A stretch of DNA of 64,000 nt from an uncultured delta proteobacterium (GTDB lineage: Bacteria; Desulfobacterota; Binatia; UBA9968), in the NCBI GenBank assembly GCA_963816145.1, contig CAWFJP010000017.1, positions 251,435 through 315,434 of the forward strand, given 5' to 3'. Made by a program: the position numbers and the translations under genes. Numbering within the stretch: the first letter of the stretch is position 1; the number at the start of each line of letters is the position of its first letter. This document shows positions 55 through 2,317 of the stretch, piece after piece. The notes beneath the pieces are model-generated. The model did not search any database and had not been told where the DNA came from. It saw only the letters and a program-made list of their open reading frames with translations.

Positions 55-2106
55 TTGAGTGACGAAAGAAAAGACCTGAACGAGAAAATCAGGTGGCTAC
101 TCCTTCTTCGGGTAGTGATCCTTAGTTTTTTTCTGGGAGCTACGGCTCTCGTCCATTTCTTCCAAGCGGAATGGGACATTAGGTATCTCATCAGTCTCTC
201 TTTACCGCTGATTCTCGCGTACGCGATTTCGATCGGTTCAGCACTGCTCTTGCCGCGGTTGAAGCATCTCCGAGCATTTGCCCATGGGCAGGTAGCTTTG
301 GACGTACTCCTGATCACAGGGATTATCTGGATCACCGGCGATAGCTCTAGCCCGTTTTCTTTTCTTTACAATCTCGCGGTTATCAACGCAGCGATTTTAC
401 TGTTTTATCAAGGCGCGTTAATCGCCGCTGGCATTTCAAGCGTGTGTTACGCAGCGCTTCTTTTGTGGTCGCATCACTTGCTGCAAAATGGCACCAGTAT
501 TCCACTATCGTGGACTGCATTGGTGACGATGGTGATCAACGTCGGCAGTTTCTTCGTAATTGCTGCGCTGAGTGGATATCTCACGGACAAACTGGGCAAA
601 ACGCAGAAGCTGCTACAAGAAAAACAGATAGATTTTCAGGAGCTCGATGCGTTCAAGGAAGCGCTCTTGCAAGGCATCGGTAGCGGCGTAGCTATCACCG
701 ATAGTCAGGGGCGAATCAACTATTTTAATCAGCAAGCGCAGAATTTAACCTCGCTTGGCGAGGCGGATGTGATTGGAAAACGGCTCGACCAAATCTTCCC
801 TGGATTACAATTCGATTTCCAGCGTGGCGGCCGTAGCGGTGCCGTCTTCAACGAAGAGCTTCCGTTACCTGGTTTACAAGGAGTCCCAAAACAAGTGCGT
901 TTGACGCTGGCCCCGCTCAGTGATTCTGACGAACAGCTTCTCGGGTATGTTTCTATTTTCGAGGACATCACAAAACAAAAACAGATCGAAGAAAAAGTTC
1001 GGATCGAGGAAGAACTGCGCAGATCGCGGGAAGTCGAATTACAGGTACCTTCCATTGGATTTGACGACGTGCCTTTTCGCTTCGAAGGAGTCGTGGGTAA
1101 AAGCGGCGGCATGGAAAAGATTTGCCAGCTCATTCAAAAAGTTGCGGTGAGCAGCACTAACGTTTTGATCTCTGGTGAAAGCGGGACGGGTAAGGAGCTG
1201 GTTGCGAGAGCGGTTCACTTAAACGGGCCTCGGCAAAACAAACCCTTCGTGGGAGTCAATTGCGGTGCCATCCCGGAAACGCTGATCGAGAGTGAATTAT
1301 TTGGCCATGTGCGAGGGGCCTTTACCGGTGCGGTGGCGGATCACAGTGGGTTATTCAAACAAGCCGACCAGGGAACCATATTTCTCGACGAAGTGGGCGA
1401 ATTGCCGCTGCATCTCCAAGTAAAACTCTTGCGCATTTTGCAAGAGAAAACCTTCACGCCGGTCGGCGCCAGTAAACCTGTTAAGGTCGATGTGCGCGTG
1501 ATTTCTGCGACCAACCGGGATTTGCGAAAGGAATTGGAAGAAGGCAGATTTCGCGAGGATCTTTTTTATCGGCTAAATGTAGTCAACATGGTCTTACCGC
1601 CACTGCGCAGCCGGAAAGAAGATATTCCTTCCCTCGCCCACTATTTTTTACGGAAATTTGCGGCTTCCCTCAACAAGAATGTCGAAGAAATCTCCAGCGG
1701 TGCCCTTATGCAGCTGATGAATCACACTTATCCGGGAAACGTCCGGGAGTTGGAAAACATCATTGAGCATGCAGTGGCGATAACCAACAAAAATATCGTC
1801 ACGGAAGAAGATCTGCCGCAGCAACTGAGAGGTAAGACGATCATCAACGATAGCAATGTATTCGAGCAAACCGCGCCTGGCGGTGCCGAGGTATTCTTTG
1901 ACAAGGGACTCTCTCTGGATGTGGAGCTAGAGACTCACGAGAAATGCATTTTGCTGGGAGCTCTCAAGCGCGCCAACGGAGTCCAGAAGAAGGCGGCGGA
2001 AATGCTAGGTATCAATTACCGGTCGCTGCGTCACCGCTTGGAAAAATACGACCTTCTAGGAGCAAAAAATCATTCTTTTTCTGAACAAACGAATAATACC
2101 GAGTAA
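55..2106 (+). CDS. Membrane-bound sigma54-dependent activator: PilS-like N-terminal TM domain + PAS + AAA+ + Fis-type HTH (no kinase or receiver domain)
   Basis: N-terminal ~175 aa multi-TM segment resembling PilS; PAS-like segment ([21 protein letters not shown]...FEDIT); Walker [49 protein letters not shown]-terminal HTH ([19 protein letters not shown]). TTG start after AGAGGA. Confidence 0.9.
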
Positions 2107-2300
2107 CAAATTTTGTCACACCACCAATGTCCGCATTCCGTAAACTTGAATCTCATCCCTAACCAGAGCGCCTCTCATCGTTCAATTCAATCACAGACAG
2201 AACTTCTAACCTGTTGGAATTATGTGATTTCACTCAATTGTGACCGGAGTATTGACGAGATTCTTCCAACTTCAGACCATCATTTTAATTCAGCCATTGT

Positions 2301-2317
2301 TTGGCCTTTCAATTGCT
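2301..2317 (+). promoter_or_regulatory. sigma54 (-24/-12) promoter for pilA
   Basis: TTGGCCTTTCAATTGCT has GG-N10-GC spacing and lies between a sigma54 activator gene and pilA. Confidence 0.75.

Follow-up and report, generated by a model that had tools for sequence, protein, structure and literature searches.

The locus described here belongs to a 64,000-nucleotide (nt) window of contig CAWFJP010000017.1 (assembly GCA_963816145.1; positions 251,435 to 315,434) from an uncultured delta proteobacterium. Its central gene encodes in one polypeptide a membrane sensor of the PilS type and a sigma54-activating output of the PilR type, directly upstream of the type IV pilin gene pilA. The gene runs through 683 codons of one open frame, from a TTG start to a TAA stop, in agreement with the initial annotation of this DNA, which had described one uninterrupted 683-amino-acid (aa) open reading frame (ORF); the end coordinate of 2317 given there was wrong, being the end of the promoter, and the ORF ends at 2106 (Table 1). 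Upstream of position 55 the frame stays open for 57 further codons (740 aa in total), with no ATG, GTG or TTG between the upstream stop and 55, and the aligned relatives share the start residues MSDERKDL... with the 683-aa ORF. Upstream of the fusion in the window are recO, a pyruvate phosphate dikinase gene, pilB (T2SSE) and pilC (T2SSF), and downstream of it a sigma54-type element, the pilin gene and a gene for a large YfhO-like membrane protein. Two contigs from public soil metagenomes of different studies cover the gene with 10 differences (285-2679) and 17 differences (56-2522) and cross every domain boundary, so that the junction between the two halves is spanned gap-free by independent assemblies and the gene is not a misjoin, one of the outcomes envisaged at the outset.

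Table 1 Coordinates of the features at the fused regulator locus, as positions of the window.
Feature	Position	Strand	Basis
Fused regulator gene, 683 aa	55..2106	+	ORF; contigs over 285-2679 and 56-2522, 0 gaps
PilS-type six-helix membrane domain and cytoplasmic connector helix, residues 1-207	55..675	+	Pfam 6TM_PilS, AlphaFold2
PAS domain, residues 208-305	676..969	+	Pfam PAS_9/PAS/PAS_4, AlphaFold2 strands
Post-PAS helix (residues 306-329) and junction	970..1092	+	blastp limits, AlphaFold2 confidence (pLDDT)
Sigma54 AAA+ core and lid, residues 347-595	1093..1839	+	Pfam Sigma54_activat, AAA_lid_14
Fis-type HTH_8 DNA-binding domain, residues 625-665	1927..2049	+	Pfam HTH_8, 43.4 bits
Candidate enhancer palindrome GTAACAAATTTTGTCAC, overlapping the regulator stop codon	2103..2119	.	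Conservation
Sigma54-type -24/-12 element TGGCCTTTCAATTGCT (GG-N10-GC)	2302..2317	+	TGGC-N8-TGC family conservation
Type IV pilin gene pilA	2465..2844	+	Pfam N_methyl; NCBIfam PilA_Myxo partial; frame comparison
Terminator-like G+C hairpin, then T run, after pilA	2873..2904	+	Sequence reading; sub-threshold Rfam hairpin matches alone

Pfam domain positions were computed on the numbering of a 701-aa frame. The domains follow one another as 6TM_PilS (PF25323; 54.5 bits against a cut-off of 27), PAS (PAS_9 at 45.5 bits, with PAS and PAS_4 also matching), Sigma54_activat (PF00158; 241.1 bits), AAA_lid_14 (89.6 bits) and HTH_8, while HisKA, HATPase_c and Response_reg gave no match in the fusion at E <= 0.1. 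The architecture proposed earlier, namely a PilS-type transmembrane region, PAS, a short linker, an AAA+ core with GAFTGA and a helix-turn-helix (HTH) domain, is thereby confirmed, and both the absence of phosphotransfer parts and the membrane tether are borne out by these domains. NCBIfam returned merely partial, sub-threshold matches to many sigma54 activators. The AAA+ core carries Walker A (GESGTGKE, nt 1174-1197), GAFTGA (nt 1315-1332) and Walker B (DE, residues 445-446), and together with the HTH, a sigma54 promoter at the putative target and rpoN in the genome the protein has the features of an enhancer-binding protein.

An AlphaFold2 model built on a 63-row alignment (mean pLDDT, the predicted local distance difference test, 77.8) places the membrane helices at residues 2-37, 42-68, 72-94, 100-142 (two spans) and 153-207 (sixth span and connector), followed by a PAS fold at 208-305 (strands 211-304) and a helix at 306-329. 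The 12-letter coiled-coil stretch noted earlier as the linker corresponds to residues 314-325, within this post-PAS helix. A joint at 328-340 is of low confidence (pLDDT < 50), the AAA+ core begins at 351 and the HTH occupies 621-664. The best match in the PDB by sequence was NifA, and all 35 PDB matches cover residues 303 onward, so that none of the 35 is a solved relative of the sensor half; an ESM Atlas search with residues 1-345 yielded generic PAS and 6TM_PilS clusters and nothing else. Fold searches with a model of residues 1-215 (pLDDT 72.7) gave Pseudomonas aeruginosa ImcA and the adenylyl cyclases AC9 and AC5 as best matches (Z 13.1-13.3; 190-201 aligned residues, root-mean-square deviation 3.8-6.0, 10-12% identity) and Mycobacterium tuberculosis Cya at Z 10.8; a Z of about 13 can reflect a common arrangement among helical bundles, and the ImcA and cyclase match is a lead only.

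Both halves of the protein could be traced to the two-component system. An HMMER scan with residues 1-215 returned 1259 representatives at E <= 0.001, of which the best 150 were taken; 96 of these are at least 500 aa long, and 82 of the 96 were domain-scanned, 14 being omitted for a size limit. All 82 carry 6TM_PilS, with HisKA in 72, HATPase_c in 71 and a sigma54 domain plus HTH_8 in nine, and phmmer over all of the best 150 of 1259 recovered the identical nine fusions. The N-terminal domain is thus PilS-homologous, as had been supposed: it scores above the 6TM_PilS cut-off, 72 of the 82 scanned relatives are HisKA kinases, and the six-helix domain is followed by PAS as in PilS (phmmer matches to kinases down to 1e-29). 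With blastp, residues 1-321 of the fusion align with PilS kinases at their positions 14-339 (28-36% identity), the alignment stopping before the H-box, and residues 341-667 align with positions 138-457 of the PilRs encoded beside those kinases (52-54% identity), beginning only past the receiver domain. Residues 322-340 match neither PilS nor PilR and coincide with the low-confidence joint of the structural model.

The output half is 52-56% identical to four PilRs vs 48.7% to the best paralog in the same genome, and a tree built on the AAA+/HTH part groups 28 fusions with the four PilRs and separates them from 28 same-genome paralogs (support of 98 in the Shimodaira-Hasegawa-like approximate likelihood ratio test, SH-aLRT). 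The proposal of a PilR-type output is upheld by this grouping, and tree and synteny agree in giving the fusion an orthologous AAA+/HTH and a gene beside pilA, as expected of PilR. Comparison of the sequences thus establishes PilS ancestry for the sensor half and PilR ancestry for the output half. Most simply, the fusion would have arisen by an in-frame deletion that began where the PilS dimerisation and histidine phosphotransfer (DHp) domain starts and reached through the PilR receiver and the linker behind it. Such a loss would have taken the PilS kinase core (DHp and ATPase) and the PilR receiver, and would have joined the remaining PilS sensor and PAS to the PilR AAA+/HTH through a 24-residue helix and a flexible joint of about 20 residues.

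A word-indexed protein search with residues 1-360 gave 635 matches. The 120 matches listed, the best of the 635 (64-100% identity over residues 1-360), all carry PF25323 and PF00158; HisKA, HATPase and receiver domains are listed in none of the 120, and HTH_8 is present in all of them except three short ones (408-580 aa). In their source databases the relatives appear as 'sigma-54 interaction domain-containing protein [Candidatus Binatia bacterium]', while JGI calls them 'response regulator PilR', a name given to fusions although the receiver domain is absent. Among 30 close loci from species-representative genomes, 29 were true relatives and one (L041), matched by the PAS part alone, was excluded; the order pilB-pilC-fusion is found in 29 of 29, and pilA comes next in 23, the other six ending at or just past the regulator gene.

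The sampling was extended to 151 genomes of the window's GTDB class at a match threshold of E <= 1e-8. Matches were obtained in 71 genomes, 58 of them over both the membrane and PAS parts and the rest, as the rows were read, over PAS only (the tally of 71 includes G282, a PAS-only row). In all 26 class loci examined, which span 9 family codes, a single gene immediately downstream of pilC encodes both the membrane domain and the AAA+ core; 21 of the 26 have a pilin gene next, and two further class loci are interrupted by contig ends. Rather than a one-off deletion, as the initial annotation had reckoned with, the fusion is conserved across a class-level clade. The group that bears it is probably Binatia, since in one class member (G076) the 310 residues compared, from the sensor part, are nearly identical to an NCBI protein under the label Candidatus Binatia bacterium. 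The genome of the window has one rpoN (contig C11), 33 other sigma54-activator matches and no match to a 6TM_PilS other than that of the fusion.

Three genomes of one family in the class (G278, G217 and G302; loci L078, L079 and L080) have, besides the fusion, a second and distant 6TM_PilS-HisKA kinase of 465-604 aa, with no PAS match in these kinases and no pilB or pilC in the examined flanks.

Conservation extends to individual residues. All 63 aligned members agree at Walker A, Walker B and the arginine positions, and likewise at G421, T424, G425 and A426 of GAFTGA, with A422 and F423 kept in at least 90%. In or beside the membrane helices R19, Q79, D83, S99, Y105 and Y132 are invariant in 40 sequences including five kinases, and the arginine column of R19 is the sole invariant column among 82 proteins, mostly kinases. 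Median pairwise ratios of nonsynonymous to synonymous substitution (dN/dS) were 0.10 for the membrane domain, 0.14 for PAS, 0.19 for the linker, 0.04 for AAA+ and 0.12 for the C-terminus, as calculated from 15 family members with 18-46 of 105 pairs having usable dS per figure and dS of about 2, near saturation.

The spacer between the fusion and pilA contains two conserved elements. All 23 family spacers contain a TGGC-N8-TGC motif with a variable spacer, 150-205 nt upstream of the pilin start, and a similar element, often the canonical TGGCAC-N5-TTGC, occurs in 21 of 26 further loci. The claimed GG-N10-GC promoter with pilA downstream is thus found where it was predicted (element at 2302-2317, pilin start at 2465), and the proposed link of the regulator to a sigma54 pilA promoter is supported by its conservation in 23 of 23 spacers. 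The second element is a palindrome of the form T(A/G)ACAAANTTTGTCA, of which a TTTGTCA half stands at that position in all 23 family spacers. The extended palindrome occurs a single time in the 7.8-Mb genome, and copies resembling TTTGTCAC were seen among the more distant loci of the class and at one fusion from outside it. It can be presumed to be a candidate enhancer site of pilA.

In two studies, RNA-library contigs over pilA begin at 2366 and 2350, without loose letters at these ends, where the DNA contigs continue; the ends, just downstream of the predicted start site near 2328, are a weak hint of a transcript start past the -12 element. Further RNA-library contigs lie over 1827-2052 and 1358-1628 of the regulator gene, which is no proof of transcription, and none was found over 2107-2349, where missing cover proves nothing.

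The pilA leader also has a conserved Shine-Dalgarno-like block, AAGGAGGTG, at 2361-2369, about 45 nt past the -12 element and about 95 nt upstream of the pilin start, with AAGGAGGT in 17 of 23 spacers. Rfam gave nothing at gathering score on 2000-3000 and no family for the block.

Outside the class, kinase-sized frames predominate in the genomes sampled from the phylum (154 of 201 with a membrane-domain match). Ten out-of-class loci, picked by frame length and not at random, comprised seven kinases and three fusions (G020, G026 and G036); a PilR gene adjoins the kinase in four of the seven (L071, L074, L075 and L077) and was not detected in the examined stretch of the other three. The out-of-class fusions are interspersed with kinases and PilRs in both the sensor and output trees. 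In approximately unbiased (AU) tests, for which the sensor set was reduced from 83 to 31 rows and the output set comprised 25 rows, placing all fusions in one clade was rejected for the output half (p-AU 0.016) and not rejected for the sensor half (p-AU 0.398). Because the tested group was named after a tree had been seen, it is suggested rather than demonstrated that the collapse from two components to one occurred more than once. The three out-of-class fusions (L068-L070; G026, G020 and G036), from the same GTDB phylum, have the identical fused architecture in the pilC-pilA slot, and in L068 a perfect TGACAAATTTTGTCA palindrome stands immediately after the stop codon.

Taken as a whole, the locus is best explained, with moderate confidence, by a conserved membrane-embedded fusion of PilS and PilR that activates pilA without phosphorylation and whose likeliest input is pilin. 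The part of this explanation that concerns a dedicated, phosphorylation-independent pilA activator is likely in its own right. The fusion would oligomerise in the membrane and remodel sigma54-RNA polymerase at the pilA promoter, its HTH binding the conserved palindrome that overlaps the regulator's stop codon and lies some 185 nt before the -24 element. Since no phosphotransfer is possible, the sensor and PAS module would have to act directly on the ATPase; it could set ATPase assembly through the post-PAS helix, which corresponds to the kinase helix running into the DHp domain, and phosphotransfer would be replaced in this way.

The likeliest input would be the unassembled pilin pool of the inner membrane, by analogy with the negative autoregulation of P. 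aeruginosa PilS. The available sections of two papers describe P. aeruginosa PilS as binding pilin inside the membrane (PMC6058289, PMC6528607), and PilS R24 and pilin E5 and P22 as mattering for the PilS-PilA contact (PMC6528607). The invariant R19 of the first transmembrane helix (TM1) and the E5 and P22 found in 15 of 15 family pilins are weakly consistent with pilin sensing. Pilin as the signal, considered separately, is a tentative assignment, with the balance leaning slightly to the other side. More doubtful, and rather unlikely in its entirety, is a joint scheme in which the PilS domain reads unassembled pilin and, without kinase, phosphatase or receiver, directly gates assembly of the attached AAA+ ring, which activates pilA from the palindrome at the end of its own gene; in such a scheme the locus may stay at the membrane through the insertion there of the products of pilC, the regulator gene and pilA.

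Several points weigh against the preferred explanation. Pilin sensing has no direct support in this analysis, and the correspondence of R19 to P. aeruginosa R24 is presumed. E5 and P22 are nearly universal in type IVa pilins and therefore discriminate little. A complex prediction with membrane domain 1-215 and pilin residues 12-70 scored 0.00 and was uninformative either way. No characterised precedent was found for a DNA-acting hexameric AAA+ ring tethered by 36 membrane helices. For the palindrome, it is conservation that suggests a binding site. In the reduced 25-row output tree the separation from paralogs falls to an SH-aLRT of 69. The window's own pilA is frame-broken, and the target may be defective or mis-assembled in this assembly. 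All members come from uncultured metagenome genomes.

An activator of the same one-component kind could instead respond through its PAS or membrane domain to a cytoplasmic metabolite, to redox or membrane state or to another protein of the pilus machine. Retention of PAS in every member speaks for such an input, as does the statement, in the available part of PMC6528607, that the signals of PilS homologues beyond P. aeruginosa are unknown. It is nevertheless rather unlikely, for constraint on the membrane domain matches that on the DNA-binding end (dN/dS 0.10 vs 0.12), polar intramembrane residues common to the kinases are kept, including the single invariant TM1 arginine, and the gene adjoins pilA with its candidate enhancer nowhere else in the genome. 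Improbable, too, is a constitutive activator whose membrane domain is a mere anchor or localiser, for instance to the pole or the pilus machine, without any part in signalling. The protein lacks a receiver domain by which it could be switched, and a paper cited in PMC6058289 links, by its title, the PilS transmembrane domain to polar targeting; a plain anchor, however, would need neither a conserved PAS nor invariant polar helix residues common to sensor kinases. Regulated cleavage in the flexible joint (residues 328-350), freeing a soluble AAA+-HTH activator, is very improbable: the joint between the sensor and output halves is of low confidence and poorly conserved, but no conserved protease gene in the locus and no cleavage motif were seen, and the idea is conjecture. 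Finally, an assembly artefact or a decaying remnant like gonococcal Rsp is scarcely credible and was rejected, as were misassembly and pseudogene readings in general, since the frame breaks in the window's pilA and the next gene and those within the fusion in three of 26 class loci (L049, L062 and L067) stand against gap-free independent short-read contigs, intact motifs, purifying selection on every part, a conserved sigma54 promoter, a retained rpoN and an open frame common to more than 100 relatives.

The pilA activator proposed here as a membrane-embedded PilS-PilR fusion can be compared with several known systems. The PilS-PilR pairs of P. aeruginosa, Geobacter, Myxococcus and Kingella, as described in the available part of PMC6058289, share with it the homologous six-helix sensor and PAS, the homologous sigma54 AAA+/HTH output, the gene slot before pilA and a sigma54 pilA promoter; the fusion differs in being one polypeptide without the DHp histidine, the ATP-binding kinase domain and the receiver aspartate, and in that the activator itself is an integral membrane protein. 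The Rsp system of Neisseria gonorrhoeae was reportedly called a remnant by Carrick et al. in 2000. By its description it resembles the present protein as a fusion of PilS-type and PilR-type genes. In pathogenic Neisseria pilE is expressed from an RpoD promoter, whereas the fusion here keeps its motifs, rpoN and the sigma54 promoter and is conserved across a class; it thus shares the fusion with an Rsp-type remnant and shows no decay (intact motifs, dN/dS 0.04-0.19, sigma54 promoter kept). According to the available sections of PMC6528607, rsp joins nps with npa, homologues of PilS and PilR respectively, and has apparently no action on pilE, and on that partial account it is the nearest precedent.

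Soluble one-component enhancer-binding proteins with PAS or GAF sensors, such as NifA, whose sensor is a GAF domain, likewise have the sensor directly upstream of the AAA+ core and no phosphorylation; they are cytoplasmic, while the six-helix membrane sensor of the fusion derives from a histidine kinase. In Desulfovibrio vulgaris 15 of 37 enhancer-binding proteins are one-component with PAS or GAF inputs, none being mentioned as membrane-spanning in the available part of the report (PMC4641369). Membrane adenylyl cyclases and ImcA are alike in fold only, with a six-helix bundle and a cytoplasmic helix leading into an output domain, at 10-12% identity to the membrane domain of the fusion. ToxR and CadC also combine a sensor, a membrane span and a DNA-binding domain in one protein that meets DNA at the membrane; unlike the fusion they have a single span, an N-terminal winged-helix domain and no ATPase, and act at sigma70 promoters. 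No functional PilS-PilR fusion or membrane-embedded sigma54 activator was found in the literature searched, most subscription journals lying outside the search.

In the textbook picture type IV pilin genes are controlled by PilS-PilR. A natural sensor-to-ATPase fusion could offer a clean test bed for how the PilS membrane domain converts pilin contact into output, with a transcription or ATPase readout free of the balance between kinase and phosphatase. The apparent reduction from two components to one has been kept across a class, unlike the decay described for the gonococcal system, and raises the question of how a ring-forming sigma54 activator operates while embedded in the membrane.

With regard to the pilin gene, the ORF as assembled in the window stops at 2764 (99 aa), the remainder being found in other frames up to a TAA at 2842-2844. 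In 14 of 15 compared relatives the pilin is 127-134 aa long with a Cys...Cys tail, and that of L027 is also short (101 aa). The missing tail of the window's pilin can be read in the other two frames, for which at least three frame changes within about 100 nt are needed. Since all four covering contigs depart from the window after 2679 and share one sequence, the variable end of the pilin differs among strains, and the window consensus there may be a mixed-strain or indel artefact.

The gene after pilA (2877-5354) appears in the window as three overlapping ORFs (162, 592 and 90 aa); in its relatives it is a single ORF of 780-840 aa that matches YfhO at the C-terminus and, weakly, PMT_2, as in a GT-C-like membrane protein. 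Of the 29 close loci, 19 have it after pilA and two that extend past pilA lack it, and its product may be an enzyme that modifies pilin. A PMT_2 gene lies next, at 5306-6112. Further along, at 7403-8161, lies a 252-aa ORF whose N-terminus resembles, by eye, an IS21-type transposase (helix-turn-helix, then a DDE-like part).

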